Shown in pieces: positions 1 through 49,081 of a DNA stretch of 64,000 nt. Position numbers and translations under genes: made by a program. Below the pieces are notes generated by a model, which did not search any database, was not told where the DNA came from, and worked only from the letters and a program-made list of their open reading frames with translations. Position 1 is the first letter of the stretch. Each line of letters begins with the position of its first letter. Source of the DNA: Maricaulaceae bacterium. GTDB taxonomy: Bacteria > Pseudomonadota > Alphaproteobacteria > Caulobacterales > Maricaulaceae. The stretch is taken from the NCBI GenBank assembly GCA_026126205.1, contig JAHCJP010000008.1, forward strand, positions 56,391-120,390, written 5' to 3'.

Positions 1-1719
1 TATGAAGAACGCAAGCGTGTCGTCGATTTGCAGGAGGTCTCTTGGCATGAGCAGCAAGCAACCGAATGCTATCATGGCGGACGCAACGAGCAGTTCTGGT
101 TTGGTCCCGCTTTCGAAGACGATTGGATCGATTACGATCTATCAAGCGCCTATCCGACCGCAATGGGACTGATCCGCAAACCTGATTGGAAACGGGCGTT
201 CGTCACCACTCGCATTTCGAAGTTCCAACCCGATGTTCTCGGCGTCGCCAATGTTGAGTTCGAATTTCCCGAGCATGTCCGTTTTCCGACCTTGCCTGTG
301 CGAACCGACAATGGCCTGATCTTTCCCCGCAAGGGCGTCAGCGATTGCGCCTCTCCTGAAATCGTTTTGGCTCAAGCGCTGGGCGCCAAGCTCAAGATCA
401 GACACGGCGTTGTTGTTCCATACAGTTCGGATGAAGCCGTATTCGGTGATTTCATTGCCGACTGCATCCGTCAGCGTTCATCATTTCCGAAGGGTTCGCT
501 CGGAAACCTGTTCTGGAAAGAGCTGAGCAATGCCAGCTACGGCAAAACTGCTCAGGGATTGAGAGAAAAGCGCGTCTTCGACCTGAGGGATCGCACCACC
601 AAGCCCCTTCCTCCAAGCAAGATTACTAATCCCTACTTCGCCGCTTTCATCACCTCCTTCGTGAGAGCCGTCCTTGGCGAGATCATGAATGGGCTTCCGC
701 ATAGTTGCTGCGTATTTAGCTGTACGACCGACGGCTTCTTAACCAATGCCACTCAGCGAGAAATGGACCATGCGACGCAGGGGCGACTTGTCGCTCTCTA
801 TAGCCAAGGCCGTCAGAAGCTGACAGGCGATCCGACTGTCTTGGAGATCAAGCACAGGGTTCGCCAGCCTCTAGGTTGGAGAACCAGAGGTCAGGCGACC
901 CTTAAGCCAGGCACCGTTCCTGACGCAGGTAACGCCAATTTCGTTCTGGCAAAGGGCGGCATTCACCTGCCTGAGTACATCGAGGATACGGCTCTCGAAA
1001 ACAGCAAGATCGTTAACCTGTTTCTCAACCGATCGCCCGATGACAAGATTACATTTCGCCACAAAACAGGCGTGCGGGATATCGTCACTTTTGATGCCGA
1101 TCTTGTCGACAAAAGCCTGACGAGGCGATTGAGCATGGAGTTTGATTGGAAGCGCAAGCCGAATGCCGCTGTACAATGCGCCTCCCCTAACCATGTCGCT
1201 TTTTCCACGAAACCATGGGACACCGTCGATGAGTTCATCCTGATGCGCCAATATTGGGAGGACTTTGCGATCAAGTCCCCATTCTGCCTCAAGTCGATTG
1301 CCGACTATCGGCAGTTCGCCATCTACGTGATGACCCATTCCACTCTCGGCAAGGCGGATAGCAAATATCTACGCCGTGACGGGGGTGACTTGAAACGACT
1401 TCGTCAATCGCTCGGCGCTGCATGGCGGCATTCGAAAGCGGGCTTGACATGGCAACAGCACCAAATCTCGAATGGCAAGTTCGCTGAAATCCTTACGGAG
1501 GCAGGCATCCCCTGCAATCGGGCAGATATTGAAAATGCTTCACGCAAGCCGTTTGCACCGAAGAAGTCCCCACCGACGCCTGACGTATATGAAGCCTTGA
1601 CAAAACTGGCTCTTCAGTTTCCCACCCTTGAGGTCGATGCCTTCATTGCTAATAATAACGGTGCGATTGACCTTGTTTCCACAATCAACTCGCCCTGCCC
1701 CTTCACCTCAAGGCTATGA
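1..1719 (+). CDS. Family-B DNA polymerase, C-terminal part (5' end cut by the window edge); primer-independent PolB (piPolB)-like
   Basis: Frame 1 is open from position 1, with no stop before the TTG at 28. PolB palm motifs occur in the correct order: DYDLSSAYPTAM (motif A, Dx2SLYPS type), KELSNASYGKTAQG (motif B, Kx3NSxYG type), FSCTTDGF (motif C, DTDS type). WRTRGQ then sits where classical PolBs carry KxY, resembling the KTRG signature described for pipolin piPolBs. Confidence 0.7.
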   Translation, partial: YEERKRVVDLQEVSWHEQQATECYHGGRNEQFWFGPAFEDDWIDYDLSSAYPTAMGLIRKPDWKRAFVTTRISKFQPDVLGVANVEFEFPEHVRFPTLPVRTDNGLIFPRKGVSDCASPEIVLAQALGAKLKIRHGVVVPYSSDEAVFGDFIADCIRQRSSFPKGSLGNLFWKELSNASYGKTAQGLREKRVFDLRDRTTKPLPPSKITNPYFAAFITSFVRAVLGEIMNGLPHSCCVFSCTTDGFLTNATQREMDHATQGRLVALYSQGRQKLTGDPTVLEIKHRVRQPLGWRTRGQATLKPGTVPDAGNANFVLAKGGIHLPEYIEDTALENSKIVNLFLNRSPDDKITFRHKTGVRDIVTFDADLVDKSLTRRLSMEFDWKRKPNAAVQCASPNHVAFSTKPWDTVDEFILMRQYWEDFAIKSPFCLKSIADYRQFAIYVMTHSTLGKADSKYLRRDGGDLKRLRQSLGAAWRHSKAGLTWQQHQISNGKFAEILTEAGIPCNRADIENASRKPFAPKKSPPTPDVYEALTKLALQFPTLEVDAFIANNNGAIDLVSTINSPCPFTSRL

Positions 1720-1958
1720 AGCCCTGAACATCTCCCTTTGATAAATCGGACTTATAGACCCTCAATTTACCGAAAATGGAGTTACGGCCAATAGTTTATC
1801 TGGCAATATGACGCTGTGGTCATCCTTGCGAAATTGGCTGCCTGTAGAGCGGTGGCGCCAGTTATTCACCCTCACCCATTTTAAAATAGCATTTTTATTT
1901 ATTGCATTGTTGCGTTTTTCTTACAAATTTGCTCATAATATGCGATTAGATTTATTAA

Positions 1959-1989
1959 TTACCGCTATGAATATCCTTACCGCTGTGAA
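1959..1989. repeat. Two tandem 13-bp direct repeats (TTACCGCTATGAA / TTACCGCTGTGAA), 18-bp register, iteron-like
   Basis: Read directly: 1959-1971 and 1977-1989 match at 12 of 13 positions. They lie in the AT-rich tract between the PolB gene and the Rep-like gene. Confidence 0.5.
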
Positions 1990-2096
1990 AGTTAATATAA
2001 AATAGCTGTAAAAACAACAAATACATGCGGCTCAAGTTTTCTGATTTCATAAATATATGGTCTTCATCATATCTTTATGGGGTTCTATTGCTCACA

Positions 2097-2594
2097 ATGC
2101 ACCGCTCTCTTGCTCGTTCAATCCAGCGATCCGTTCGCCAGTGGTTCAATATCGATGACTGGCATCATCCCTTTGCGGCGACTCTGACGCTGAAACAGCG
2201 GATCGGGGGAGATGGCGGCGTGTCATCCGCTGACGAGGGCCTGACACCAGAGAGCGCCTCTCGAAACCTGCGTCATTGGCTCAATGTGATGAACAAGCAG
2301 GTCTACGGCTCCGCCGCTCAGAGGCATGGGAAGAGCCTGTCTGTTATTCCCGTGTTGGAGGGCGACCGAGACAAGCGCCTGCATTACCACCTTGCCATTG
2401 ATTGCCCAAGGGACGACCTGATCGAGGCCTTCCCCGCAATGATCGTCACTTCATGGCGGAAGACGCTGTGGGGATACGGTCAAACCGACGTGAAGCCCTG
2501 TGACAGGGGTTGGCTCACGTATATCACGAAGCTGAGGGACAAACCCGACTTCGGATCATCCATAGACTGGTTGAACTGCCACACCCCCCACTGA
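2097..2594 (+). CDS. Small HUH-superfamily Rep-like protein (rolling-circle initiator/relaxase-like), tentative
   Basis: Motifs appear in canonical HUH order: FAATLTLK (motif 1, FxTLT-like), LHYHLAID (HUH) and LTYITKLRDK (YxxK catalytic Tyr). The track ORF begins at 2025 and the ATG at 2097 is an alternative. Neither has a clear SD, so the start is uncertain. Confidence 0.45.
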   Translation: MHRSLARSIQRSVRQWFNIDDWHHPFAATLTLKQRIGGDGGVSSADEGLTPESASRNLRHWLNVMNKQVYGSAAQRHGKSLSVIPVLEGDRDKRLHYHLAIDCPRDDLIEAFPAMIVTSWRKTLWGYGQTDVKPCDRGWLTYITKLRDKPDFGSSIDWLNCHTPH

Positions 2595-2605
2595 TCGGGG
2601 GGTGT
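2581..2605 (+). other. Perfect 9-bp stem-loop (ACACCCCCC-actgatc-GGGGGGTGT) spanning the stop codon of the Rep-like gene
   Basis: The two arms are exact reverse complements and the 7-nt loop contains the TGA stop (2592-2594). No T-tract follows. It may be a terminator-like hairpin or a candidate Rep nick-site hairpin. Confidence 0.45.
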
Positions 2606-2780
2606 CGTTGATCGTTGGGTATAGACCCCTTTCACGTCACCAATCGTTTGCTGCCCCACCAGGAACCGCTCTCCAAGGCGGGTCTTGATGGATATTTATA
2701 CCCAATAGAACCAGTTAGTTAGACACTATGATAAATCAAAATGCCCCATAACACCTAAAGCGTACAGGAGAATAGCAATT

Positions 2781-3107
2781 ATGAACAATAGAACACTGAC
2801 GAATTTCAATGTTCCATCACGAACGCGCAAAAGGTTCGATGAGGTCTGCCATGCCAGTGGCAGAACGAGAACATCGGTCCTTGTTGAACTGATGGAGAAT
2901 TTCATACTGCAACAGGGACAGGTTCTCGCTGAGCGGGCAAAGCGGTTTAAGGAGGTTGACCATTCGATCCGAGAAAATCGTCGTATAATCGGCTTCAAGG
3001 ATTTTCTCACCGAACAGCCCGTCGATGAACGAACGGCCGTTCAGGGGCGTTCAAATTCGAATCTAGCCCTGCCTGATCCGATGTTTTCCGATGGGCGGAA
3101 GGAATGA
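2781..3107 (+). CDS. Ribbon-helix-helix (CopG/Arc/MetJ-type) DNA-binding protein
   Basis: The N-terminus NFNVPSRTRKRFDEVCHASGRTRTSVLVELMENFI fits the beta-strand, helix, helix pattern of RHH repressors. AGGAG lies 8-9 nt upstream of the ATG. Confidence 0.7.
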   Translation: MNNRTLTNFNVPSRTRKRFDEVCHASGRTRTSVLVELMENFILQQGQVLAERAKRFKEVDHSIRENRRIIGFKDFLTEQPVDERTAVQGRSNSNLALPDPMFSDGRKE

Positions 3108-3420
3108 TGGTGATCTCGAAATCCAGAAGCCGCGGGCGAAACAGGATTCGATCAGGATTGTACAATATGCTCCCGCTCAATCAGTTGGAATTTACGAGGG
3201 AACGGCATTGAACCTGTTACCGAACGCGAATGCTCTTTCTAGGCAAGGAAATGGCTTGATCATGATCCAATGATTTTCCCGCCCTACGAAACATTTTGCG
3301 CCCCCCATGTTCGCTCTTAAGAATTAGCTCTGCACGGAAAAACGCACGAGGGCGCTTGCCCTGCATAAATGCGAGTGCCCTTATTGCGTTCCGCCCGCCA
3401 GAAGAGGTCAGCAACCCCTC

Positions 3421-4050
3421 ATGAATCTGATCAGGTCGAAAAAGCGCGTTGCGGACCATGGGGAGGTGTTCACGCCGCCTTGGCTGGTCGAGAAAATGCT
3501 CGACCTCGTTCAGGGTGAGACAGAACGCATTGATGCGCGTTTTCTCGAACCAGCATGCGGTAGCGGAAACTTTCTCGTCCCTATCTTTCAGCGCAAACTT
3601 GCAGCGGTTGAGCTGAAGTGCGGGAAATCCGAGTTCGACAAGCGGCACTATGCGCTGCTTGGGCTGATGTGCTGCTATGGCATCGAGCTTCTGGCAGACA
3701 ACATCGACGAATGCCGCGCGAACATGCTCGAGGTGTTTGCTGCCTACCTGGATATTGATGAAACCGACGACCTCTACCGCGCCGCATCCTTCGTGCTATC
3801 ACTCAATCTCGTTCATGGTGACGCGATGACGATGAAGGATATGACGGGACAACCGATCAACGTGGTTGAATGGGGTTATCTCGGCAAAGGCAAGTTTCAG
3901 CGCCGCGATTTCCGTCTTGATGTGCTGACAGGCATGTCCAGTTTCGCAGCGGAAGACTCCCTCTTCGCGCATCTGGGCAAGCACGAGATATTCACGCCAA
4001 CATCGACCTATCCGCCTATGACCGTGCGTGATCTGGCTGGCATGGCATGA
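3421..4050 (+). CDS. Methyltransferase-like protein with the SAM-binding half only (motifs X, I and II/III present, no catalytic NPPY)
   Basis: GEVFTPPWLV (motif X) and FLEPACGSGNFL (motif I, xPxCGxGxF) are present. YGIELLADNI and LVHGDAM resemble motifs II and III. The ORF ends 209 aa in, with no (N/D/S)PP(Y/F/W) anywhere. Confidence 0.65.
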   Translation: MNLIRSKKRVADHGEVFTPPWLVEKMLDLVQGETERIDARFLEPACGSGNFLVPIFQRKLAAVELKCGKSEFDKRHYALLGLMCCYGIELLADNIDECRANMLEVFAAYLDIDETDDLYRAASFVLSLNLVHGDAMTMKDMTGQPINVVEWGYLGKGKFQRRDFRLDVLTGMSSFAAEDSLFAHLGKHEIFTPTSTYPPMTVRDLAGMA

Positions 4051-4060
4051 CAGAGGCACG

Positions 4061-5641
4061 ATGAGCTTTCAGGCGAACTTCACCCTTCGTGGCAGAAATC
4101 CCGATGTGTTGACCTGCATCGCCAACCTGTCGAATGATGAAGTTTTCACGCCACCTGAGTTCGCCAACCGCATGCTCGACACGCTCGCTGAAGCGTGGGC
4201 AGAGCGTCATGATGGTGCAGATATCTGGTCAGACAGCTCGGTTCGGTTTCTCGATCCGTTCACCAAGTCTGGTGTTTTTCTACGCGAAATCGCCACTCGC
4301 CTGATCAATGGGTTGGAAGCTGATATCCCTGACCTGCAAGAGCGTGTCGATCACATTCTGACCAAGCAGATTTATGGGATTGCGATCACGCGCCTGACCA
4401 GCTTGCTTGCCCGCCGCAGCCTCTACTGCTCGAAGTTTGCCAATGGACCGCATTCCGTTTCGACGAAGTTCGAGAATGAGAGCGGCAATATTTGGTTTGA
4501 GCGGACTGAGCACACATGGATCGGACAAAAATGCAATTTCTGTGGAGCGCCTCGCTCGCTTTTTGACCGCGATGTAGAGCTGGAAAACCACGCTTACGCC
4601 TTCATTCACACCAATGATATCAAGCACCGTCTTTCGGGGCTGTTCGGAGATGACATGCAGTTTGATGTGATTATCGGAAATCCGCCCTACCAGATGACAG
4701 GCGGAGCAGGCGGTTCGAGCGATTCTTCGATCTATCATCTGTTTGCCCAGCAGGCCTTTAAGCTCGAACCACGCTTTGTAAGCATGGTGATACCCTCTCG
4801 TTGGATGGCTGGCGGTCGCGGTCTTGATGAGTTTCGTGGGGAAATGTTGAACAGTGGTCACATACGGAATCTGGTCGATTTCCCAGACTCAAGCACAGCG
4901 TTTCCTGGAGTGCAGATCAAGGGGGGGGTCTGCTTTTTTCTGTGGGACAGTCAGCATTCAGGCACGTGTGAGGTTACACGCGTTGCGAATGGTAAGGAAC
5001 ATGTACAGCGCGCTCGGGTTTTGGGTGAGTTTGATGTTTTCATTCGGGATGAGCGCGGCTTAAGCATTCTTCGAAAAGTTCTTTCAAAGAAAGAGGCATC
5101 GATTGTTGACCTTATTTCGGGTGATACGCCCTTCGGCATTGCCACAAACTTCAAAGATTGGAACGAAAAGGATGGCGACGACAAGATTCCACTTCATCTA
5201 ATTGCCCAAAACAAGCGATCTATCGGTTTCATGAAAAGGAGTTTGATCACAAAAAATGTTGGATATCTCGACACATGGAAAGTTTTTGTTCCGAAAGCAT
5301 ATGGCGCTGGTGAATCTTTCCCCCATCAGATACTTGGACGAGAGATAGTCGCCGCGCCTCCGTCGGCATGCACTCAGACTTATCTTGTCGTCTCACCGTT
5401 CTCTTCTGAGAAAGCTGCTCGCAGTTTTGCAAGCTATTATCAAACTCGCCTTTTTCGATTCCTTGTTTCTCTCCGTAAGATCACCCAAGATGCATTGCGC
5501 TCAACTTACACTTGGGTCCCAAAACAAGCGTGGGATCAAACTTGGAGCGATAGAATTTTGTATGAAAAATACGGGATCACTCCAGAAGAGGTTTCTTACA
5601 TTGAAAGCATGATACGTCCGATGGATAGCGCAGATGGCTAA
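4061..5641 (+). CDS. N6-adenine DNA methyltransferase, gamma class (Eco57I-family-like modification subunit)
   Basis: DEVFTPPEFANRML (motif X), FLDPFTKSGVFL (motif I variant) and FDVIIGNPPYQM (motif IV) are present, followed by a long C-terminal putative target-recognition region. The start is taken at ATG 4061, 10 nt after the upstream stop. The track start at 4028 would overlap the upstream gene by 23 nt. Confidence 0.85.
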   Translation: MSFQANFTLRGRNPDVLTCIANLSNDEVFTPPEFANRMLDTLAEAWAERHDGADIWSDSSVRFLDPFTKSGVFLREIATRLINGLEADIPDLQERVDHILTKQIYGIAITRLTSLLARRSLYCSKFANGPHSVSTKFENESGNIWFERTEHTWIGQKCNFCGAPRSLFDRDVELENHAYAFIHTNDIKHRLSGLFGDDMQFDVIIGNPPYQMTGGAGGSSDSSIYHLFAQQAFKLEPRFVSMVIPSRWMAGGRGLDEFRGEMLNSGHIRNLVDFPDSSTAFPGVQIKGGVCFFLWDSQHSGTCEVTRVANGKEHVQRARVLGEFDVFIRDERGLSILRKVLSKKEASIVDLISGDTPFGIATNFKDWNEKDGDDKIPLHLIAQNKRSIGFMKRSLITKNVGYLDTWKVFVPKAYGAGESFPHQILGREIVAAPPSACTQTYLVVSPFSSEKAARSFASYYQTRLFRFLVSLRKITQDALRSTYTWVPKQAWDQTWSDRILYEKYGITPEEVSYIESMIRPMDSADG

Positions 5642-8165
5642 ACCCATCTCCGAAATCCTTGCGCCCAAGCCCGATGTGCACCCGCGCATCTATGCCTATG
5701 CGATCAAAAGCAGTTCGCATGATGGCTTGCTGAAAATCGGGCAGACCACACGCGATGTGAAGCAGCGCATTCTGGAGCAGGTGAAGACTGCGGCTATCGA
5801 GTTCAAGATCGAGCTGGATGAGCCTGCTGCGCGTGATGATGGCTCGATCATCTCAGATCACGCTGTCAGGGCCGCGCTCATAAAAAAGGGTTTCGAAAAT
5901 CCTCAGCTCGAATGGATGCGCTGCTCTGTTGCTGACGTTCAAACCGTCCTGAACGAGCTTCGGACGGGCCAGAAGCTTTCTGCCAACCGCAACGAGACGT
6001 TTCCGCCGCGACAAGAGCAAACCGAAGCCGTCGATAAAACATACGACTATTTCACGTCGATCTGGCGTGAAGATGAAACGAAGGCGCCGCGCTTTCTCTG
6101 GAATGCGAAAATGCGTTTCGGAAAAACATTCGCCACATATCAGCTTGCCAAAAAACTTGGCGCCAAGCGCGTCCTTGTCGTCACGTTCAAGCCTGCCGTT
6201 GAAGACGCTTGGCAGACAGACCTTGAATCGCATGTGGATTTCGAAGGCTGGCAATATCTGTCGCGCAAGTCTGAGAATGACCCCACCCAGATCGATGCCA
6301 ACAAGCCCGTTGTTTTCTTTGGATCGTTTCAAGACCTGCTCGGTCGTGACAAGGTGACGGGAGCGATCAAACCGCGCAACGAATGGCTGCACACGATCAA
6401 CTGGGATCTAGTCGTTTTCGACGAGTATCACTTTGGCGCATGGCGCGACACGGTGAAGGAACTGTTCGAGGGCGAAGACGATGCAAAGCGCGAAGAGAGG
6501 TTCGAATATGACGCTGGGCTGGACGAGGTAAACGACGACCTCAGCGACATTTCCGCGAACGAAGCGATCTTCCTGCCCATCACGACCCGCGCATATCTCT
6601 ATCTGTCTGGGACACCGTTCAGGGCACTGGCGACAGGCGAGTTCATCGAAGAGCAAATCTTTAACTGGACCTACACCGACGAGCAGCGCGCAAAAGCCGA
6701 TTTCGCCACCAAGCATCCCGACAAGCGCAATCCCTATGCCTCTTTGCCGCAGATGCGATTGCTCACCTATCAGATGCCTGACGAACTATTGGCAATCGCC
6801 AGTGCTGGTGAGTTCGACGAGTTCGATCTGAACGAGTTTTTCGCCGCCAAAGGGGCAGGCAAGAATGCTGCCTTCACGCACAAAAGCGACGTTCTGAAAT
6901 GGCTTGAAATCATTCGTGGCGCATATGTGCCGCAGACTGTGGATGCGCTGAAGACTGGGACGCGGCCGCCATTCCCGTATTCAGACGCAAGATTGCTGCC
7001 CTATCTCCAGCATTCGCTCTGGTTCCTGCCGAATGTCGCGGCCTGTCACGCAATGGCAAACTTGCTCGCTGAAAGGCACAACACGTTCTGGCATGGCTAC
7101 ACGGTCATTCTCGCTGCTGGATCGCAAGCAGGTATCGGCCTCGATGCGGTTCCACCTGTTCGTCACGCTATAGGTAGCGGCTTCGATACCAAAACAATCA
7201 CGCTGTCATGTGGGAAGCTGACAACTGGCGTGACGATCCCGCAGTGGTCATCGATCTTGATGCTGCGCAATCTGAAATCGCCTGAGACCTATTTCCAAGC
7301 TGCTTTCCGTGTGCAGTCTCCGTGGTCGATCAAGAATCCGCACGGTGACAATCCCAACGAAGATGAGATTATCAAGCCTGTGTGCTTCGTGTTCGACTTC
7401 GCCCCGACACGAGCATTGAGACAGCTTTCCGACTACGGCATTGGCTTGTCCCCTGGCGAAGCTAATCCCGAAAACGCTGTGAAAGAGCTTGTCTCGTTTC
7501 TGCCCGTGCTCGCTTACGATGGCGCGAACATGACGCAGATCGATGCTGGCGGCATCCTCGATATTGCGATGGCAGGCACGTCAGGCACGTTGCTGGCGCG
7601 CAAATGGGAATCCGCATTGCTCGTCAACGTCGATAACGACACCTTGCGCCGCGTGCTCGATAATCCAGAAGCGATGGCGGCTGTCGAACGGATCGAAGGC
7701 TGGCGCTCTCTTGGTGACAACATCATCGAGACGATCATCAACAAGAACGAAAAGGTCAAGGAACTAAAGAGTAAAGAGAAGAGCGAGGGGCTGTTAAAAA
7801 CCGAGAAGAAAGAGCTTAGCGAAGAGGAAAAGGAATATAAGTCAAAGCGCAAGCTTGTTCAGGAAAAACTGATCAAGTTCGCTACCCGCATTCCTGCTTT
7901 CATGTATCTCACCGATTTCCGAGAAAACACGCTTCAAGATGTGATCACTAAGCTTGAGCCTGACCTGTTTCAAGCTGTCACTGGCTTGACCGTCAGCGAT
8001 TTTCACCTGCTCGTCCGCTTGAAGGTATTCAACACAGAGCGGATGAACCAAGCTGTCTTCGCTTTCCGCCGCTATGAAGATGCGTCACTGCGCTACACGG
8101 GCATTGAGAGCCATGAAGGACTCACGCATTACGGTCTCTATGACACTGTGACAGCGAAGGAATGA
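5634..8165 (+). CDS. T5orf172 (GIY-YIG-like) domain fused to an SF2 helicase/translocase; putative restriction (Res-like) subunit
   Basis: N-terminus: RIYAYAIKSSSHDGLLKIGQTTRDVKQR...LEWMRC, the T5orf172/MUG113 pattern. Helicase motifs: MRFGKTFAT (I), LVVFDEYHF (II, DExH), YLSGTPF (III) and YFQAAFRVQSP (VI). A Lys/Glu-rich coiled-coil and a C-terminal domain follow. The start overlaps the methylase stop by 8 nt (ATGGCTAA). Confidence 0.85.
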   Translation: MAKPISEILAPKPDVHPRIYAYAIKSSSHDGLLKIGQTTRDVKQRILEQVKTAAIEFKIELDEPAARDDGSIISDHAVRAALIKKGFENPQLEWMRCSVADVQTVLNELRTGQKLSANRNETFPPRQEQTEAVDKTYDYFTSIWREDETKAPRFLWNAKMRFGKTFATYQLAKKLGAKRVLVVTFKPAVEDAWQTDLESHVDFEGWQYLSRKSENDPTQIDANKPVVFFGSFQDLLGRDKVTGAIKPRNEWLHTINWDLVVFDEYHFGAWRDTVKELFEGEDDAKREERFEYDAGLDEVNDDLSDISANEAIFLPITTRAYLYLSGTPFRALATGEFIEEQIFNWTYTDEQRAKADFATKHPDKRNPYASLPQMRLLTYQMPDELLAIASAGEFDEFDLNEFFAAKGAGKNAAFTHKSDVLKWLEIIRGAYVPQTVDALKTGTRPPFPYSDARLLPYLQHSLWFLPNVAACHAMANLLAERHNTFWHGYTVILAAGSQAGIGLDAVPPVRHAIGSGFDTKTITLSCGKLTTGVTIPQWSSILMLRNLKSPETYFQAAFRVQSPWSIKNPHGDNPNEDEIIKPVCFVFDFAPTRALRQLSDYGIGLSPGEANPENAVKELVSFLPVLAYDGANMTQIDAGGILDIAMAGTSGTLLARKWESALLVNVDNDTLRRVLDNPEAMAAVERIEGWRSLGDNIIETIINKNEKVKELKSKEKSEGLLKTEKKELSEEEKEYKSKRKLVQEKLIKFATRIPAFMYLTDFRENTLQDVITKLEPDLFQAVTGLTVSDFHLLVRLKVFNTERMNQAVFAFRRYEDASLRYTGIESHEGLTHYGLYDTVTAKE

Positions 8166-8261
8166 GCGTCAGGCAGCGAGTTAAGTATTCCTACTTTAGG
8201 ATCTGCCTCTCTTCCCGATATCGCAACCTTTTCGTTGCCCATTCGCTCATTCCAAGGGATG

Positions 8262-8297
8262 CCCGTCAAACATAAACGTTGGTTTACTTTTGACGGG
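8262..8297. promoter_or_regulatory. Inverted repeat CCCGTCAAA-N18-TTTGACGGG immediately upstream of the serine recombinase gene (candidate recombinase-binding or operator site)
   Basis: The 9-bp arms at 8262-8270 and 8289-8297 are perfect reverse complements. The repeat ends 10 nt before the ATG at 8308. Confidence 0.35.
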
Positions 8298-8307
8298 ATA
8301 CGGGGCG

Positions 8308-8940
8308 ATGGCTCGTTATGTCGCATATTTCAGGGTGTCGACGGAGAAGCAGGGAAAGTCGGGCCTCGGTCTGGCCGCCCAGCGTTCGTTGATCGAACGG
8401 TTCGTGTCCGATGGTGACGAGGTCGTTGCTGAATACGTCGAGGTGCAATCGGGCAAAAATGACGAGCGGATTGAGCTTTGGAAGGCGATCCACCACGCAA
8501 AGCGGACCGATGCAAAGCTGCTGATTGCGAAACTGGATCGATTTTCACGAAAGGTCAGCTTCATCGCCTCGATCATGGAGCAGGGAATCGGGTTGGTCGT
8601 GGCCGAGATGCCAAACGCAACGGATTTCCAACTGCACATCTTCGCCGCCCTCGCACAGGAAGAGCGTCGGTTGATTTCCGAACGGACCCGCAATGCCCTG
8701 ACCGAAGCGAAGAAGCGGGGCGTGGTTCTGGGGAAGAATGGCAAGGTTCTGGCGGAGCGAAACCGCAAGGCCGCTGATGAACGCGCGGAAGCGCTGCGCC
8801 CCACCGTTATTCCGATGGTTGAACAGGGGCTGTCGATCAGTGGGATCGCCCGCCGCCTGAACATGGAAGGGATCAGGACAGCACGGGGGAGCAGGTTCTA
8901 CCCGCAACAGGTCTCCGACATGATCCGTCGTATGGGATAG
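8308..8940 (+). CDS. Serine recombinase (resolvase/invertase family)
   Basis: MARYVAYFRVSTEKQ carries the catalytic Ser motif. The resolvase core reads LLIAKLDRFSR and the C-terminal HTH reads GLSISGIARRLNMEGIRT. The internal ATG at 8308 was chosen over the track start at 8290. Confidence 0.9.
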   Translation: MARYVAYFRVSTEKQGKSGLGLAAQRSLIERFVSDGDEVVAEYVEVQSGKNDERIELWKAIHHAKRTDAKLLIAKLDRFSRKVSFIASIMEQGIGLVVAEMPNATDFQLHIFAALAQEERRLISERTRNALTEAKKRGVVLGKNGKVLAERNRKAADERAEALRPTVIPMVEQGLSISGIARRLNMEGIRTARGSRFYPQQVSDMIRRMG

Positions 8941-8941
8941 G

Positions 8942-8967
8942 AAAAAGGGGGCTTCCGCCCCCTTTTT
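8942..8967. terminator. Bidirectional rho-independent terminator between convergent genes
   Basis: AAAAA-GGGGGC-ttcc-GCCCCC-TTTTT is a perfect 6-bp GC stem. An A-tract lies upstream and a T-tract downstream. It sits between the recombinase stop (8940) and the stop of the minus-strand gene (8991). Confidence 0.75.
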
Positions 8968-8990
8968 GGTTCACCCGTGCGCTGATGCTG

Positions 8991-9362
8991 TCATTTTGCG
9001 GCTTTGACGAATTTCTGACGGATATCCGCCGCCGCCTTGGTCAGTTGATCGTCGAAATCGCCTTTCAGGACCATTCCCCTGACCGTACACAGCGCCGCCT
9101 CAACGATGTCGAGGTCAGCGCACTGGATCGAGAACATCCCCTTCTTGAGTTCAATCGGTTGGCGCCCGTATTTGATTGGGAGGAAGTACGTTCCCGCTTC
9201 ATCCATCCAGACCCAGGCAGCGCGAGGCTGTGCGCCCTCGATCATCTGGCGGACATAACTGATTTGCTGGTCGATACTGCGGACCAGTTTATGGCGGCGC
9301 TGGACGTTGGCGGACGCCTTGTCGGGGCGGGTGGTGGAGGCGAACTTGAGTTCCATCGACAT
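8991..9362 (-). CDS. Hypothetical protein encoded directly downstream of the integrase
   Basis: The ORF track gives 8991-9530, but that N-terminal extension overlaps the integrase 3' end. MSMELKF at 9362 starts 58 nt after the integrase stop. I recognise no motif in it. Confidence 0.55.
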   Translation of the reverse strand: MSMELKFASTTRPDKASANVQRRHKLVRSIDQQISYVRQMIEGAQPRAAWVWMDEAGTYFLPIKYGRQPIELKKGMFSIQCADLDIVEAALCTVRGMVLKGDFDDQLTKAAADIRQKFVKAAK

Positions 9363-9420
9363 ATCTCCGTGGTTGATATGTCGGGCGTCCCGCCATTCGA
9401 ATTTAAGGTCCACGGGGTTA

Positions 9421-10647
9421 TTACTGACCACCGAACTGCTGGAGGTTGATCGCCATCTCACGGCTGAGAGGGAGATTGCGGGCGTAAAACCGCTCGATCT
9501 GCTCAACCGAGGTTCCAGCGTTCTTCGCAAGATTGTAGATGTTCACCTGCCCGTGTGACAGGATCAAGCGCATGCAGATCGCTGTGTGGCGGAGGGAATA
9601 GATCGTATACTTGAGTCCTGCCTCTGGGTCATTCTTGACACCAGCCCTTTTCAAGACTTCCCGAAACTGGCGCTGCACGATCTTCGAGACTGTCTCACGA
9701 TTGGGATAGTCGGGAAAGAACAGGTAATTGCTAGGCTTGGCGTTGGGGTTGCGGCCTTTGATCCGCTGATAGACACCGACCGCTGCGGGCATCGTGTTGG
9801 CGACCCTGAATCCTGTCTTGCCGTTGCGAATGGTCAGCAGCAACCGCTTGGGATCTTCCGCAACGGCCACTTCATCATGCTTGAGGGCGTAAATTTCTGA
9901 GATGATCGGGCGAACGAACGAATGCGTGACGAACAAAATAAGATCATACAGTTCATCGGTCACGGGAACGCCGCGGACGAGCACATTTTCTCTCGCCATG
10001 GCCTTGGCGGCTCGAAGGACCGCTTGATAGGCGTCGTCCTCTTCCGCCACCAACGGGTGAAACGGGAGATAGGAACGAGGCGTGTCCTTCTGGCGGGTTC
10101 TCGGTGTCGCAGGGACGATATCGATTACGCCATCATCCCGAGCCACCTTCAGCACGTTGCGGAAAGTGGCTGTCAGCATATTGCGGGTTGAGGTCGAAAG
10201 ATCAGGGCGCTGCTTGGACAGTTTGTCCATGAACTCCTGATAGTCTCGGGTTTTCAGATCCCGAATATCCTTATGTCCGAATGCTTTGATCAAACCCCAT
10301 TCAGCGTTGTTCAGAAACAGCTGGGTGTTGCGGGCATAGTTGGCGTTGCGCTCACCGTTTTCGACAAGCCGCTGCCCTTTGCTGATCAACCTCGTTGCGT
10401 AATGGCGGAAGCTGAATTCGCGCTCAACACGCTTCTCAGCCCCGAGCAGTTCAAATGCCAACTCCCTTGCCACCTGCTTGGCTTTGACCCGTGATGTTTC
10501 TTGGGTTGAGCATACAATATACCGCCTGATACGAGGATCGCGGATGCGGGCTTGCCAATAGGGGCTAGCTCTGACTTTATAAATCGCCAATCCGCGATGT
10601 ATCGTGATGATCTTGCCATCGAGGGCGTTTTTGGATTTAGTTGGCAT
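9421..10647 (-). CDS. int: Tyrosine recombinase / phage-type integrase
   Basis: The C-terminal catalytic region has YSLRHTAICMRL (HxxR box) and SVEQIERFYARNL (catalytic Tyr). The N-terminal arm/core-binding region is about 150 aa. The gene is adjacent to the tRNA-derived att sequence. Confidence 0.9.
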   Translation of the reverse strand: MPTKSKNALDGKIITIHRGLAIYKVRASPYWQARIRDPRIRRYIVCSTQETSRVKAKQVARELAFELLGAEKRVEREFSFRHYATRLISKGQRLVENGERNANYARNTQLFLNNAEWGLIKAFGHKDIRDLKTRDYQEFMDKLSKQRPDLSTSTRNMLTATFRNVLKVARDDGVIDIVPATPRTRQKDTPRSYLPFHPLVAEEDDAYQAVLRAAKAMARENVLVRGVPVTDELYDLILFVTHSFVRPIISEIYALKHDEVAVAEDPKRLLLTIRNGKTGFRVANTMPAAVGVYQRIKGRNPNAKPSNYLFFPDYPNRETVSKIVQRQFREVLKRAGVKNDPEAGLKYTIYSLRHTAICMRLILSHGQVNIYNLAKNAGTSVEQIERFYARNLPLSREMAINLQQFGGQ

Positions 10648-10745
10648 GAGTTCCGCTTAGCCCAAAACAGGTTTTCGGTCAAAAGTTATAAAGTGAAGCT
10701 ATAAAGATATCGATAACCTATTGAAATACAAGGTGACTCTAGCCC

Positions 10746-10790
10746 CTCTTAATCAGCGGGTCCTAGGTTCGAATCCTAGTGGGCGCACCA
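10746..10790 (+). tRNA. 3' half of a tRNA gene (anticodon loop to CCA); probable att site, not an intact tRNA
   Basis: The T-arm is CTAGG-TTCGAAT-CCTAG. The 3' acceptor strand TGGGCGC is followed by discriminator A and an encoded CCA (10788-10790). The loop-like CTCTTAA followed by TCAGC and GGGTC would fit a Lys(CUU)-type anticodon arm. There is no complementary 5' anticodon-stem strand, no D-arm and no 5' acceptor strand (GCGCCCA) upstream. Confidence 0.6.
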
Positions 10791-10815
10791 AGTTTCCCCC
10801 GCCGGAGCGCGAAGC

Positions 10816-11343
10816 ATGAATCTCGACCGGATCAGCGCCGGAGAAAACCCGCCGGATGACGTCAACATGATCGTCGAGGTCCCGCTCGGCGGCGACCCGG
10901 TGAAATACGAGCTGGACAAGGCCTCCGGCGTGCTGGTGGTCGACCGCTTCCTGCACACCGCCATGCGCTATCCGTGCAATTACGGCTTCATCCCCCACAC
11001 GCTGTCCGAAGACGGCGACCCGGCGGACGTGCTGTGCCTCGGCACCTCCGCCCTGATCCCCGGCAGCCTGGTGCGGGTGCGCCCGATCGGCGTGCTGCTG
11101 ATGAAGGACGAAAAGGGGCCGGACGAGAAAATCCTCGCCGCGCCGCACGCCTCGGTGACGTCATATTACGACGCGGTGAAGGACCATACCGACGTGCCCC
11201 CCGCCCTGCTGGCGCGGATCACGCACTTCTTCGAGCACTACAAGGACCTGGAGCCCGGCAAATGGGTGAAGGTCAGCGGCTGGGGCGACGCGGCGCTGGC
11301 GCGGACGATGATCGAAAAGGCCATCGCCGCGGCGAAGGGTTGA
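10816..11343 (+). CDS. ppa: Inorganic pyrophosphatase
   Basis: The sequence [19 protein letters not shown]...[33 protein letters not shown] and the 175-aa length match family I soluble PPases. Confidence 0.95.
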
Positions 11344-18933: not shown

Positions 18934-20151
18934 CTAGACCGGGACCGCCTCGTCCTTGCCTCTTCGGAAAGGCTGCAGCTTGCCATAGGTCAGCGAGCGC
19001 CAGACCCACTCCATCGGCCCGAAGCGGAAGAAGTGCAGCCACACCGGAGAGATGATCAGCTGCGCCAGCCAGACCAGCATCACGATCTGCACCTGCTCGG
19101 CGCGCTCGATCTCCCCGAACAGGCCAAGCCCTGGCGTGCCGACGAAAATGAAGGTCATCACCAGCGTCTGGGTCAGATAGTTCGTGAACGCCATCCGGCC
19201 TACGGCGGCGAACGGCGCCCGCACCATCTGCAACGCCGCGATCTTGCAGACCAGCATCATCACCGCGGCGTAACCGAACGCCACCAGCAGGCTGGCGACG
19301 TAATTGCCGCCCATATGCTTCCACATTTCACCAAGGGCGAATTCGCTGGCGATGGCGTATTCACCGCCCCACCAGGCCAGCGGCAGGCCGAAACCGAGTC
19401 CCGCGAACGCGGCGACGGTATAGGCGCCTATGCCCCAGCGCGCAGTGAGGAAGCCCCATTTGTAAAGCGCCATGCCAATGAACATCACGCCGATCAGGCG
19501 GCCACCGAACATCACCAGGCCGAAAATCTGCCCCAGCCCTGCGTAAAGCGCATTGTAGCCCATGCGGTCCAGGAAGCCGGCCTGGTATGCGCCCACCACC
19601 TCGCCCAGCTGCTCCGGCGTCGGAGCCATGCCCAGCTGAGTAGCATCAAGTTCGCCCGGGATGAGGCCAAAGGCTGCGAAGGCGCCGACTGTCATCAGTC
19701 CGCTGAGCGCGATCAACGCGAAGCCGAAAATGGTCAGACCCAGCGGCTTCATGCGCCGCGCCAGCACCGCCAGCATGCCGATCAGGGCGTAGGAGGTCAG
19801 GATGTCGCCATACCAGAACACGTAGGCGTGGATCAGGCCGATGGCTAAAAGCCACAGCATGCGGCGGTAGTGAATTTTCAGGCTCGCCCCCGGCTCCTCC
19901 CCCACCATCAACACGATCCCGGCCCCGAACAGGGCCGAGAAAAGAGTGATGAATTTCATCTCGAAGAACACATGCGTGATCAGCCAGGCCGCCTGGTTGG
20001 CGCCGGTGAAATCCATGTGCGCAAGGGGGTACTGATAGGCGGTATTGTACATGGCGAACGCCTGCACGTTCACCATAAGTATCCCCAGCACCGCCAGGCC
20101 GCGCAGAACGTCGAGACTTTCGAACCTGTCCAGCCTGGGATGCGCGGTCAT
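18934..20151 (-). CDS. DUF418 (YeiB-like) membrane protein
   Basis: RFESLDVLRGLAVLGILMVNVQAFAM is followed by multiple TM segments and a C-terminal FRFGPMEWVWRSLTY motif, as in the YeiB family. Confidence 0.8.
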   Translation of the reverse strand: MTAHPRLDRFESLDVLRGLAVLGILMVNVQAFAMYNTAYQYPLAHMDFTGANQAAWLITHVFFEMKFITLFSALFGAGIVLMVGEEPGASLKIHYRRMLWLLAIGLIHAYVFWYGDILTSYALIGMLAVLARRMKPLGLTIFGFALIALSGLMTVGAFAAFGLIPGELDATQLGMAPTPEQLGEVVGAYQAGFLDRMGYNALYAGLGQIFGLVMFGGRLIGVMFIGMALYKWGFLTARWGIGAYTVAAFAGLGFGLPLAWWGGEYAIASEFALGEMWKHMGGNYVASLLVAFGYAAVMMLVCKIAALQMVRAPFAAVGRMAFTNYLTQTLVMTFIFVGTPGLGLFGEIERAEQVQIVMLVWLAQLIISPVWLHFFRFGPMEWVWRSLTYGKLQPFRRGKDEAVPV

Positions 20152-20310
20152 GTAATCCCCCTATCCTGTAATCTGCGGATGCTGCTTGTGTATGTCTCCG
20201 GAAGCAAGCGCCTTAACAAGATTTCACGTTGCTTGCCGCCGGATTTTCTTGCCTTGCGCGCCAGCCAGGCGCATAAGGCGCGCCGGATCGGGCAAGGTCG
20301 CGAGGGGACC

Positions 20311-20541
20311 ATGCTGCATATGCTGATCACCATTATCGAATGGGTCGTCATCGCGGCGATGGCGTTTCTCGGCGTCAGCCACGCCCCGGCGCAAACCGAT
20401 CCGTGCGACACGCCTCCGGCGATCTATCGCATTTCGGACGAGGCGGATCTGATCTCCACCGGATACGCCCCGGCGGATTGCGCCGCAGCGCAGAAACCCG
20501 GCGCCCCGAACGATTCCACCGTGCACTACATCCGCACCTGA
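20311..20541 (+). CDS. Small hypothetical protein with an N-terminal hydrophobic segment
   Basis: 76 aa. GAGGGG lies upstream of the ATG. It is the only non-shadow part of the track ORF 19870-20541. Coding status is uncertain. Confidence 0.3.
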   Translation: MLHMLITIIEWVVIAAMAFLGVSHAPAQTDPCDTPPAIYRISDEADLISTGYAPADCAAAQKPGAPNDSTVHYIRT

Positions 20542-20659
20542 ACCCCGTCCTGATGCGGTGGTTTGTTTCCGCTCCGATCCCGAATATTGTCCGCTAAACG
20601 CCCCGGCGCGGTGGACGCCGCCGGGTGGACGGCGTTAAAGCTGTTCCGGCGAGGGTGAG

Positions 20660-22660
20660 ATGGACTCCAGCAAGACCGAAGGCCGGGAAACGGCACTGAA
20701 CGAACAGCCAGGCGAGCTCGACGCGGTGACGGAAGCCGCCAGCGAAACCGCCCCCGCGCTCATGACCGAACCGGCCCCGGGCCCGGCTGCGCCGGAGCCG
20801 CGCCCGCGCGGCGGATGGCTGGCCGGTCTTGGCGTGGTCTTCGCACTGCTTTGGGCAGGCGGCGCCGGCGCATATCTGTGGGGGTACCATCTTGGCGGCG
20901 ACATCTCGGGCCTGACGCCGGCTCAGCTGGGCGGTTTCGCCGTTTTCGCCGTCGCCCCGGCGCTACTGTTCCTGATGACCGGCTTTCTGGCCCGCGAACT
21001 GGCGCGCACGGCGCACAACGCCAGGCGCATGGACATGGCTCTGGCCCGCCTGATCGCCCCGGCCGCCGCCGCGGAAGGTGAAGTTCACACCCTGTCCTCC
21101 GCCGTCATGCTTGAAGTCGGCCGCGTTAACGCCGCGCTGGAAAGCGCGCTGGCCCGGCTGGCGGCGATGGAAGAAGTGATCGCCCATCACGCCGACGCGC
21201 TGGAACGTTCGGCCGGTGATGCCCGCGAGCGCGCCGAAACCCTGCTGGCCGGCCTGCGCGAGGAGCGCTTGCGGCTCAGCGAGGTTTCCGAATCCCTGGA
21301 CGACAAAGCGGCGCTGATCGCCGAGGCGATATCTGAACAGTCAAAAATGGTCGCCGCCGCGGCGGAACTCGCGGAATCCCAGGCCAGCGAAAGCGAGAAG
21401 CGCATACTGTCCGGCGCCGGCAGGCTGGCCGAGGCTGGCGAAACCGCGCTTGAAAACAGCGAGCGCGCCGCCCGCGCCCTCAAGGTTGGCGGCGACGATC
21501 TGCGCCACCTGGCGGAAGCGCTGCGCGAACGCTCCGAAGGGTTGGACGCCGCCTATCTGCGCCATCGCGACAAGCTGAAGGAGGCGGCTGAAACCCTGCG
21601 CAAGGAGCAGGAGAAGATCGCCGCCGCGCTGGACTTCCACCGTGCTGAAGTGGAGGTGATGGCCAAAACCGCGCGCGAAGGCGCCGACGGGCTGAACGCC
21701 GCCGCCCACAAGGGCGCCGTGGCCTTCCGCGAGACCGTCGACGCCGCCATCGCCCGCGCCAACGACGTCGCCGGAGCCGTTCGCCGGGAGGCCGAGGCGG
21801 CCGACCGCATCCACCAGGAAAGCCTGGAGCGGCTGAAAACCACCGCCGAAGAAGCCCAGGCCGTCTCCGACGCCGCGATGAAGGCGATCGACGCCCAGAC
21901 CCAGCGTTTGAGCCTGCAGGTCGAGAAGATGGGCGAAACCGCTTTCGAAGCCGTGCGCCGAGCCGACGAAAACTTCCAGTCGCGACTGGCCGAAGCTGAC
22001 CGGCTGACCGCCCGCGCTTCCGCCGCCGCCGACGAGGCGGCGGAGGCGGTGCGCGCGCGTCTGGAGACCGTTCTGGAGGCCGCCCGCACGGAAGCCCGCC
22101 GCGTCGAGCAGGAGATCGCTGCGCTTGGCGACCGGCTGGCCGCCTTGCCCGACGCCGCCCGCGTGCGCAGCGAAGAGACGATGAATATCCTGCGTCGCGG
22201 GCTGGAGGGTCTCAACGCCGCGGCCCAGACCGCCGCCGAGGAGGCGCAGGAGATCGACGCCGCCTTCCAGGCGCGCATCCGGCAGAATTACGAACTGCTG
22301 AGCGACTTCATGCTGCGCATGGGCTCCGTCGCCGGCGGAAGGCGCCCGCCGGAACTGAAGGCGGACGAACTGCCTGACCCCCTGAGCCAGCGCCGCAAGC
22401 GCGACGATGAAACCCCGGGCACCGCACCGCCGGTCGGCGAGGCGCCAGCCTCGCCACGCGAGTCGCGCCGTGAACAGCCGGTCGGCTTCCCTGAACGCGG
22501 CCGCGCGCAGGAGCCCGGCTGGCGCTGGAAGGACCTGCTGGCGACCATGACGCCCGGAGAGGCGCCGTCAGGCGAAACGGAAGGTGCGGAAGGCGAAGCG
22601 GCCAAAGCGGCGCGCGACCCCGCCGAGGCTGGCGACCGCACGCCCGAAACCAAGCGCTGA
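20660..22660 (+). CDS. Membrane-anchored, Ala/Glu/Arg-rich coiled-coil protein, function unknown
   Basis: Two TM segments lie near residues 55-115. About 450 aa of heptad-like A/E/R/L-rich sequence follows, ending in a Pro/Glu-rich tail. Confidence 0.7.
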   Translation: MDSSKTEGRETALNEQPGELDAVTEAASETAPALMTEPAPGPAAPEPRPRGGWLAGLGVVFALLWAGGAGAYLWGYHLGGDISGLTPAQLGGFAVFAVAPALLFLMTGFLARELARTAHNARRMDMALARLIAPAAAAEGEVHTLSSAVMLEVGRVNAALESALARLAAMEEVIAHHADALERSAGDARERAETLLAGLREERLRLSEVSESLDDKAALIAEAISEQSKMVAAAAELAESQASESEKRILSGAGRLAEAGETALENSERAARALKVGGDDLRHLAEALRERSEGLDAAYLRHRDKLKEAAETLRKEQEKIAAALDFHRAEVEVMAKTAREGADGLNAAAHKGAVAFRETVDAAIARANDVAGAVRREAEAADRIHQESLERLKTTAEEAQAVSDAAMKAIDAQTQRLSLQVEKMGETAFEAVRRADENFQSRLAEADRLTARASAAADEAAEAVRARLETVLEAARTEARRVEQEIAALGDRLAALPDAARVRSEETMNILRRGLEGLNAAAQTAAEEAQEIDAAFQARIRQNYELLSDFMLRMGSVAGGRRPPELKADELPDPLSQRRKRDDETPGTAPPVGEAPASPRESRREQPVGFPERGRAQEPGWRWKDLLATMTPGEAPSGETEGAEGEAAKAARDPAEAGDRTPETKR

Positions 22661-48700: not shown

Positions 48701-48761
48701 GGCCGGCGCCCGCTCCGCTCGGTCACCTTTCATTCAGCCGTGTGTGCGCTATATTAAGCGT

Positions 48762-49081
48762 GTCCGCCCTCGGGCGGACTATGACGATAAACGCGCGCGT
48801 AATAACCGGACTGGACCCGGGTGCGATGCCCGGCGGCTCCACCAACACCTTTCTCCCATTGGGGAGACTTATGGGGCCGAAACAGGATCGACAGACGGGT
48901 AAAGGTGTTTGCTTTCGTCCGAATGGGCTCCGTCAAAAGCCCGCTATCAAAGTTGCCAACGACAACTTTGCTGAAGAGGTCGCTCTCGCCGCGTAAGCGG
49001 TGCGAGATATCTCGCTCTAAAGTCCCGGGGCCTTAGCGACCCCGGGCGGGGTCCGGGGGGCGCCTGGCAACAGAAGCCCCC
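48762..49081 (+). ncRNA. ssrA: Circularly permuted (two-piece) tmRNA gene: acceptor piece about 48762-48844, spacer 48845-48872, coding piece about 48873-49081
   Basis: The tag reading frame GCC AAC GAC AAC TTT GCT GAA GAG GTC GCT CTC GCC GCG TAA (48955-48996) encodes ANDNFAEEVALAA. The tmRNA 5' end GGGGCCGAAACAGGATCGAC is at 48873. The T-arm CCGGG-TGCGATG-CCCGG and CGGCTCC-A-CCA (ending at 48844) lie upstream of that 5' end. The 5' GGGGCCG pairs with CGGCTCC, including the G3:U70 alanine identity pair. The outer ends of the two pieces are estimated from terminal hairpins, not determined. Confidence 0.85.

Follow-up and report, generated by a model that had tools for sequence, protein, structure and literature searches.

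A probable pipolin integrated at a tRNA-Lys gene upstream of ppa in a Maricaulaceae bacterium

Pipolins are, to our knowledge, the only known elements whose family-B DNA polymerase (PolB) needs no primer to start DNA synthesis, and recently they have been recognised as defence islands. The DNA considered here is a stretch of 64,000 nucleotides (nt) of contig JAHCJP010000008.1 (the window), which comes from a Maricaulaceae bacterium represented by a metagenome-assembled genome (MAG). The analysis covers positions 1-10790 of the window, and the left end of the element lies off the window edge. With a probability of about 0.9, this part is the right-hand portion (at least 10.8 kb) of a pipolin integrated in tRNA-Lys. 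A pipolin had been proposed from the sequence alone, and the proposal is borne out by the signatures of the primer-independent polymerase (piPolB), a phylogenetic tree, the architecture of the attachment (att) site and an empty site in a relative.

Alphaproteobacterial pipolins have been described before. According to section 17 of PMC11551731, these elements have a tyrosine recombinase instead of the large serine type, integration takes place in tRNA genes with direct repeats, and a small resolvase-like recombinase is kept. The main text of the same paper treats piPolB as the sole hallmark of the pipolin family and defence cargo as a general rule, and because the hallmark is present the window element is counted as a pipolin. 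It resembles the element shown there as "Figure 4, pipolin 3" in its piPolB, in a tyrosine recombinase that stands in for the large serine type, in the use of the 3' part of a tRNA gene for integration (with direct repeats, of which the right copy is visible here), in a small serine recombinase similar to resolvases, in cargo of the defence type, and in the absence of structural genes for phage or conjugation. The integrases in that paper are assigned to the IntTn916 family; the window integrase matches phrog_1. The main text of the paper mentions neither a Maricaulaceae host nor the tRNA-Lys(CTT)/ppa site. As far as this text goes, the class was already described in 2024 and the window holds a new example, no new kind of system.

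Two other groups of described elements are useful for comparison. The pipolins of Escherichia coli (PMC5695915; PMC7385651) share with the window element a piPolB with SxTTDG and KH-X8-(K/R)TRG, a tyrosine recombinase, tRNA integration with direct repeats (the right copy in the window), cargo of a restriction-modification-like kind and a size range of 10-20 kb. They differ in having KTRG (RTRG in the window), another tRNA, unrelated integrases and no reported HUH-type replication protein (Rep). The Staphylococcus epidermidis plasmid pSE-12228-03 (NC_005006.1) encodes a piPolB with 27% identity over shared columns and the same types of SxTTDG and KH-X8 motifs, and it has a small serine recombinase downstream of PolB. 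It differs in that it is an autonomous plasmid of 8 kb which encodes a MOBP relaxase and lacks both an integrase and an att site, and in having no homologue of three window proteins, namely Rep, a protein of 121 amino acids and the product of a 108-amino-acid open reading frame (ORF), here called o108.

The genes in the window were called from a listing of ORFs and from profile searches with Pfam, PHROGs, PADLOC and NCBIfam, and conservation was followed by tblastn of the window proteins against 100 related loci (labelled L001 and so on). The polymerase gene (1-1719, plus strand; PF03175, E 9e-11) runs off the left edge of the window, which contains the C-terminal 572 codons of an 890-amino-acid protein, with the first 318 codons to the left. 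This fragment is 100% identical to the full PolB P0001 (KIS81_11990) from a contig of 122,789 bp in a Maricaulaceae bacterium MAG, and ppa and the 121-amino-acid protein (P0241) also match that contig. In P0001, the ExoI/II, PolA and PolB motifs are intact, the PolC motif reads SCTTDG and the motif that replaces KxY reads KH-RVRQPLGW-RTRG (KH-X8-RTRG). The piPolB group is defined by SxTTDG in place of YxDTDS and by KH-X8-KTRG in place of KxY (PMC5695915). The motif S(C/V)TTDG is shared by all 12 relatives and pSE-12228-03, while three protein-primed polymerases (pPolBs; Bam35-like, PRD1-like and Muninn virus) have DTD and lack KH/KTRG. The KH pair and the spacing of eight residues are exact and TRG is kept, while the first Lys is Arg across the alphaproteobacterial clade (RTRG or RARG), a conservative difference, where pSE-12228-03 has KTRG.

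The tree agrees with the motifs. It was built by neighbour-joining from 17 sequences and 860 columns with 200 bootstrap replicates, and is thus distance-based, with pSE-12228-03 as the single published piPolB included. The bipartition between the window clade with pSE-12228-03 on one side and the Bam35-like, PRD1-like and Muninn polymerases on the other was recovered in 200 of 200 replicates. The piPolB-like signature noticed in the sequence-only reading therefore withstood a placement against protein-primed PolBs, including an archaeal one, and judged by its motifs and its position in the tree the window polymerase is a piPolB. Searches with tblastn in 72,556 plasmids gave relatives in Pseudosulfitobacter, Staphylococcus and Limosilactobacillus and in six plasmids of Fusobacterium and Helicobacter. 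The former three are genera named for plasmid pipolins in the main text of PMC11551731, and the six are not among the plasmid pipolins named in that text. The match to pSE-12228-03 reached 148 bits (E 7e-34), compared with at most 66 bits for the top phage pPolB among 50,697 phages. No PDB match was found for PolB by sequence, and NCBIfam has no model for it.

PF03175 also spans protein-primed PolBs, and the weak tblastn matches to phages were to tectivirus and Muninn virus polymerases. Both observations would suit a different element with its own polymerase, such as a casposon, a protein-primed linear plasmid, a tectivirus-like prophage or a generic tRNA island that has captured a PolB. Casposons and other self-synthesizing elements are indeed similar in that they are mobile and carry a family-B polymerase. 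However, at PolC and KxY the window polymerase has the variants typical of piPolB, and the tree sets it apart from the pPolB group. No Cas1 was found among the window ORFs with Pfam and NCBIfam, and no Cas1, terminal protein, capsid or packaging genes are present in the 10.8 kb or in complete relatives of 11-14 kb; in the visible part, Pfam and PHROGs gave no match to phage structural proteins or to a type IV secretion system. What delimits the visible end is a tRNA-derived core beside a tyrosine integrase, with no terminal inverted repeats or target-site duplication of the casposon kind, and the core of PolB, Rep, o108 and recombinase travels together in many hosts. An element of another class is for these reasons most improbable.

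On the right, the element ends with 45 nt that copy the 3' half of tRNA-Lys(CTT) (10746-10790, plus strand; CTCTTAATCAGCGGGTCCTAGGTTCGAATCCTAGTGGGCGCACCA), a sequence read here as the core of attR. The copy begins exactly at the anticodon loop (CTCTTAA) and takes in the T arm, the acceptor end and CCA. It occurs once in the window and had zero matches in shuffled sequences (0 expected by chance). When compared to an intact tRNA-Lys(ctt) in the related locus L033, 43 of the 45 positions are identical and the two differences constitute a compensatory pair in the T stem. ARAGORN reported no complete tRNA at 10.7 kb. The idea that a complete tRNA had been overlooked there was rejected since the bases upstream of 10746-10790 do not match a tRNA 5' half, and the 45-mer is therefore a fragment. 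Rfam searches at E <= 1 gave no tRNA match to it, as expected for half a tRNA, and rendered only a chance 5.8S match at 5248-5347.

The sequence in front of the core is also organised. Two direct repeats, GTTATAAAG (10685-10693) and GCTATAAAG (10698-10706), occupy positions 10685-10706 between the integrase start and the core, and these are candidate arm-binding sites for the integrase. They are followed by a conserved 14-nt box, ATAACCTATTGAAA (10713-10726), and by a 19-nt spacer (10727-10745), so that the right end reads integrase, arm repeats, box, spacer, 45-nt core and ppa. Pairs of (G/C)TTATAAA(C/G) are found at the equivalent place in L003, L049, L021 and L072, and in circular contigs they are found beyond the core as well. 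The box is identical in L003 and L049 and appears as ATAACCTACTGAAA in L072 and as AACCAATTGAAA in L027, and box and core are 19 nt apart in the window and in L003, L049 and L072.

The composition of the DNA changes at the same place. Measured in 500-nt windows, G+C is 0.44-0.59 over positions 1-11000 and 0.62-0.75 from 11001 onward, with a step up at 10.8 kb from roughly 0.54 to 0.69. The G+C content at third codon positions (GC3) is 0.51-0.73 in the nine genes of the element, 0.90 in ppa and 0.88 in the gene after ppa. The inorganic pyrophosphatase gene ppa (10816-11343, plus strand; PF00719, E 4e-55) lies outside the element as the first host gene. It starts 25 nt after the end of the core and marks the return to host composition, and the genes downstream of it are syntenic with those in L033, L034 and L032. 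The sequence-only reading had described a sharp switch near 10.75-10.80 kb, a tRNA-derived end immediately before ppa, a low-G+C block with PolB, a Rep-like gene, cargo resembling restriction-modification, and a serine and a tyrosine recombinase, and a view of the right arm only; each of these descriptions agrees with the G+C and GC3 measurements, the tRNA comparison, the profile searches and the truncated PolB.

An uninterrupted version of the locus is found in L033, a metagenome contig of 61.5 kb. There an intact, identically oriented tRNA-Lys(ctt) precedes ppa by 238 nt, and no element lies in the interval. The ppa gene is 75% identical to that in the window, and synteny continues downstream with genes for a Vgb-lyase-like protein, an aminotransferase IV, MaoC, MarR and a glyoxalase. 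To judge from gene order and sequence, this is the empty site of the integration locus, which the sequence-only reading had called for. Similar right ends with the element in place are found in L003 and L049, where the start of the integrase, the arm repeats, the box and the 19 nt are followed by a tRNA-Lys 3' half from the anticodon loop.

These comparisons also bear on the junction at 10.8 kb. The source is a MAG and related pipolins occur as small contigs with circular signatures, which could be mis-joined through shared tRNA sequence, and a false join across the shared 45 nt would be indistinguishable from integration. An assembly or binning artefact that combines an episomal pipolin with an unrelated GC-rich chromosome is nevertheless very unlikely, given that the join falls exactly where integration predicts it and that tRNA-Lys(CTT) sits upstream of ppa in L033. 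Moreover, the layout of integrase, arm, core and host DNA is found in L049 within a contig of 222 kb, and that of integrase, arm and core in L003, which is a chromosome-level assembly.

For the integrated pipolin, a left copy of the core is expected beyond the window edge. The right copy is at 10746-10790, the left copy would lie outside the window, and left or paired att copies are seen in relatives. An intact tRNA-Lys is located upstream of PolB in the same orientation at 1.8 kb in L001, 3.6 kb in L015 and 1.7 kb in L044, loci in which PolB is 78-81%, 77-81% and 75-77% identical to that of the window. The anticodon in L044 is ctt, and in L015 G+C falls directly after the tRNA-Lys. Both ends are found in three other relatives: L002 has tRNA-Gly with a 42-nt direct repeat (element of about 11 kb), L027 has tRNA-Phe with a 50-nt direct repeat (about 14 kb) and L098 has tRNA-Gly(ccc) with a 57-nt direct repeat (about 12.5 kb).

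Circular forms are represented among the relatives by L021 (CAKZOO010000012.1, 8837 bp) and L071 (8430 bp), which have terminal overlaps of 77 nt and 127 nt, the assembly signature of a circle. Each encodes a piPolB together with an integrase from the window family (58% and 52% identity), and they are probably episomal pipolins. An attP-like site is seen in L021 and in L072 (200-520), a near-duplicate of L071 from another sample. It consists of integrase, arm repeats, the box region, a tRNA 3' half (Lys(ttt) in L021 and Asn(gtt) in L072) and further arm repeats. When such an attP recombines with a tRNA gene, the resulting order begins with the tRNA, the P' arm, the left genes and PolB and closes with the integrase, the P arm, the core and host DNA. 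As far as sequence comparison can tell, the geometry is self-consistent, with the predicted left side seen in L044 and L015 and the predicted right side in the window. L021 is binned in a "Flavobacteriaceae" MAG, which is possibly a case of mis-binning.

A few observations on the related loci are given separately. L003 (2417-2460 and 21468-21620) and L015 are on the same chromosome (OZ248511.1), which thus has two pipolin loci. Beyond the integrase-side tRNA-Lys(ttt) half of L003 come 96 nt that match, at 98% identity, the first 96 nt downstream of the intact tRNA-Lys in L015, and this stretch is an attP-like or tandem remnant. L003 also has a separate fragment of a tRNA-Lys(ctt) 3' half, which lies upstream of PolB at a distance of 7.5 kb. 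In L005 (17928-18326), a related element has a tandemly duplicated tRNA-Gly(gcc) at its integrase end; the repeated unit is 92 nt and the copies are 324 nt apart, which may be the footprint of repeated integration.

The tyrosine integrase (9421-10647, minus strand; 408 amino acids; phrog_1, E 7e-20) reads away from the att site and starts 98 nt from the core. The alignment shows a conserved R (FVRP), GKTG (Lys), YSLRH (xxR) and a C-terminal RFY. Related integrases are found in L003 and L049 (67% identity), L021 (58%) and L071 and L072 (51-52%), in each case beside a tRNA 3' half. A PDB search gave a single, weak match, to the Int N-terminal domain 2kiw (E 0.07), and NCBIfam has no model for the integrase or for the protein encoded next to it. 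Just downstream of it, the conserved 121-amino-acid protein is encoded (8991-9356, minus strand), which is weakly similar to DUF6641. It has 277 homologues, and among the 120 matches listed these are about 117-136 amino acids long and 67-100% identical. An AlphaFold2 model of this protein has a predicted local distance difference test score (pLDDT) of 92.8 and found no fold match in PDB or BFVD. From the position of the gene, a role as directionality factor or regulator can be guessed.

The small serine recombinase (8308-8940, plus strand, in an ORF that opens at 8290) has about 210 amino acids and is of the resolvase/invertase type (PF00239, E 1e-24 for residues 11-145; phrog_125 DNA invertase, E 5e-31), with the catalytic-serine motif AYFRVSTEKQ. 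It is 52-91% identical in related loci and 26% identical (E 2e-12) to the recombinase of pSE-12228-03. The start codon is preceded at 11 nt by an imperfect palindrome, CCCGTCAAACATAAAC-gttg-GTTTACTTTTGACGGG (8262-8297), which is an inverted repeat with 16-nt arms that are 88% complementary. The left arm, CCCGTCAAACATAAAC, is invariant in seven elements with diverged flanks, and the palindrome is a candidate binding or crossover (res-like) site for the serine recombinase, or an operator. The serine recombinase, the 121-amino-acid protein and the integrase recur together across related loci.

Given these genes, it can be asked whether the island still moves. A pipolin-derived island could have become a fixed remnant that lost its left att or left module and is only inherited vertically. 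The left end is off the window, and decayed or tandem remnants do occur in the lineage, as in L003, where PolB matches only from residue 134 onward and just 96 nt of the arm of a neighbouring element come after the att. Such immobility is unlikely, although less so than the artefact discussed above, because the visible part of PolB, Rep, the serine recombinase and the integrase are full length with intact catalytic motifs, the 45-nt core is undecayed relative to a functional tRNA-Lys, and a composition far from that of the host argues for recent arrival.

Some points weigh against an integrated and functional pipolin. The attL with the intact tRNA-Lys is off the window, which means that the direct repeat is seen on the right side only. 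Present-day excision and replication of this copy are presumed, and mis-assembly is possible in a MAG. The integrase scores 20.5 bits with PF00589, which is under the cut-off of 27.1, and Tyr replaces the first His of HxxR. Primer-independent synthesis is an assumption for this polymerase, in which KTRG reads RTRG as in the whole clade. De novo synthesis has been demonstrated for the E. coli enzyme only, where K623A, a change of Lys to Ala at the equivalent KTRG position, impaired primer extension (PMC5695915). Finally, the proposed role of Rep is derived from motifs and synteny, and no origin, origin hairpin or nick site was found.

The locus L039 (1-12689; ENA ERZ27296343 k141_1877963) contains the closest available relative of the replication module in the window. 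PolB is 89% identical as protein and 88% as DNA, the serine recombinase is 80-87% identical and the 121-amino-acid protein 82-83%. The integrase, on the other hand, is unrelated (27% identity) and adjoins tRNA-Gly(gcc). A near-identical PolB next to an unrelated integrase implies that the recombination module and its target have been swapped on the same replication module, which fits what PMC11551731 calls "integrase dynamics" in its main text.

The gene after PolB encodes a small Rep of the HUH type (2097-2594, plus strand), with 165 amino acids from the conserved Met in an ORF that opens at 2025. It matches PF23343 (REP_ORF2-G2P) with 32.9 bits against a cut-off of 27.8, and all 16 homologues in the alignment match the same family (best E 6e-10). 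Invariant in these 16 are TLT (motif I, T31), E88, H96 and H98 (HxH/HUH), and Y142 and K145 (YxxK). The protein shares TLT, HxH with an upstream invariant Glu, and YxxK with the rolling-circle initiators in PF23343 (Rep ORF2/G2P of filamentous phages) but differs from HUH initiators in being tiny (about 165 amino acids), in lacking a helicase domain and in being paired with a family-B polymerase, not with the host Pol III. Its motifs make it a candidate nicking initiator. No PDB relative was found by sequence, with a single sequence or a profile, NCBIfam has no model for it, and a structure predicted from the single sequence was unusable (pLDDT 40).

Rep adjoins PolB in at least 25 of the related loci, including loci where PolB is only 36-42% identical. 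The third gene is o108 (2781-3107, plus strand), found by tblastn at 43-76% identity and at the same position in about 20 loci, with no match in Pfam, NCBIfam, PHROGs or PADLOC. The trio of PolB, Rep and o108 is found by tblastn in at least 25 of the 100 loci. In the plasmids, no homologue of Rep was found in the Pseudosulfitobacter plasmid either. The accessory replication functions listed in PMC5695915 include no HUH Rep. The words "rolling" and "HUH" are absent from the main text of PMC11551731, where the conserved Rep, o108 and the 121-amino-acid integrase partner are not discussed.

The spacer between PolB and Rep is AT-rich and 300-380 nt long. In the stretch 1880-2025 it contains two 13-nt direct repeats 18 nt apart, TTACCGCTATGAA (1959-1971) and TTACCGCTGTGAA (1977-1989). 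These could be a promoter or an origin-like site. Their conservation is doubtful because the spacer in L015 is only about 70 nt.

It is conceivable, though rather doubtful, that the replication module of the alphaproteobacterial lineage is a fixed unit of piPolB, the 165-amino-acid HUH Rep and o108, in which Rep-nicked rolling-circle or strand-displacement synthesis would be combined with self-priming of the complementary strand by PolB. Neither PMC5695915 nor PMC11551731 speaks in its main text of an HUH initiator combined with a self-priming PolB.

The genes and sites suggest how the element might behave. The tyrosine integrase would join the attP core, i.e. the 45-nt tRNA-Lys(CTT) half with arm repeats, to the host tRNA-Lys(CTT) upstream of ppa, and a reconstituted tRNA would be left at the left end (attL). 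Excision would be the reverse reaction and give a circular double-stranded form; the circular signatures themselves come from contigs of relatives. The circle would be copied by the element's own piPolB. Rep may nick the origin and the strand-displacing, self-priming polymerase may copy both strands, a step suggested by the strict conservation of the PolB-Rep-o108 trio and by the intact HUH and YxxK motifs. The small serine recombinase, with the conserved palindrome on its promoter-proximal side, would resolve multimers, as has been proposed for the small serine recombinase of pipolins in the main text of PMC11551731. The cargo, a block of three genes for methyltransferases and a GIY-YIG-helicase protein that sits between the replication module and the recombination module, would act as defence.

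The first cargo gene (3421-4050, plus strand) encodes 209 amino acids resembling the S-adenosylmethionine (SAM)-binding N-terminal part of N6-adenine methyltransferases of the Eco57I/MmeI type (partial matches to MmeI_Mtase and N6_Mtase; PADLOC MTase_II and REase_MTase_IIG). The motifs FTPP and EPACGSGNFL are present and NPPY is absent. A truncated pseudogene was considered and ruled out on the basis of full-length homologues of 209-243 amino acids; the family is free-standing, about 205-245 amino acids long and has 232 representatives at E <= 1e-30. The gene was absent from all the related loci when searched with tblastn. The second gene (4028-5641, plus strand; 537 amino acids) encodes a DNA methyltransferase of the Eco57I family with a GNPPY motif (PF07669, E 2e-36; PADLOC MTase_II, 5e-51), in which the SAM motif DPFTKSGVFL looks degenerate. 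From their complementary motifs, the first two genes may encode a split or two-subunit methyltransferase.

The third cargo gene (5634-8165, plus strand; 843 amino acids) encodes a putative restriction subunit with T5orf172 (a GIY-YIG-like nuclease; PF10544) and a helicase of superfamily 2 (ResIII; PF04851; phrog_16 helicase). A single fused PADLOC model of type IIG (PDLC03626, REase_MTase_IIG) is covered by gene 3 at positions 180-676 and by gene 2 at 1007-1359, while no curated NCBIfam equivalog matched the cargo proteins at cut-off. The earlier description of the module as similar to restriction-modification is justified at the level of domains with PADLOC and Pfam, and the block is probably variable defence cargo of that type. 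Among the related loci only L015, an element from Sphingomonadaceae, shares cargo. Gene 3 is 91% identical there and inverted (19155-21683), and gene 2 is 48% identical. The cargo identity of 91% compared with about 80% for PolB suggests a recent exchange of a single cargo gene across bacterial families.

Elsewhere in the window, ARAGORN reported a permuted two-piece gene for transfer-messenger RNA (tmRNA) at 48752-49087 with the tag peptide ANDNFAEEVALAA. The tmRNA gene is a common integration site, and a second integrated element beside it at about 48.7 kb was considered and dropped, as the composition shows no dip there.

The finding adds a Maricaulaceae host and the tRNA-Lys(CTT)/ppa site to the catalogue of pipolins. 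Together with its relatives, it also makes the view of one integrase family unusually full, with arm repeats, a conserved box, a fixed spacing and a core from the anticodon loop, in a set that spans the empty site, integrated copies and contigs with circular signatures. The swap of integrase and target in L039 and the exchange of cargo with L015 illustrate the modular exchange that was proposed in 2024, as presented in the main text of PMC11551731. The conserved unit of piPolB, Rep and o108 is a testable lead on how pipolins replicate. If the combination of nicking and self-priming is true, pipolins would gain a defined origin in place of the origin-independent initiation that has been proposed.

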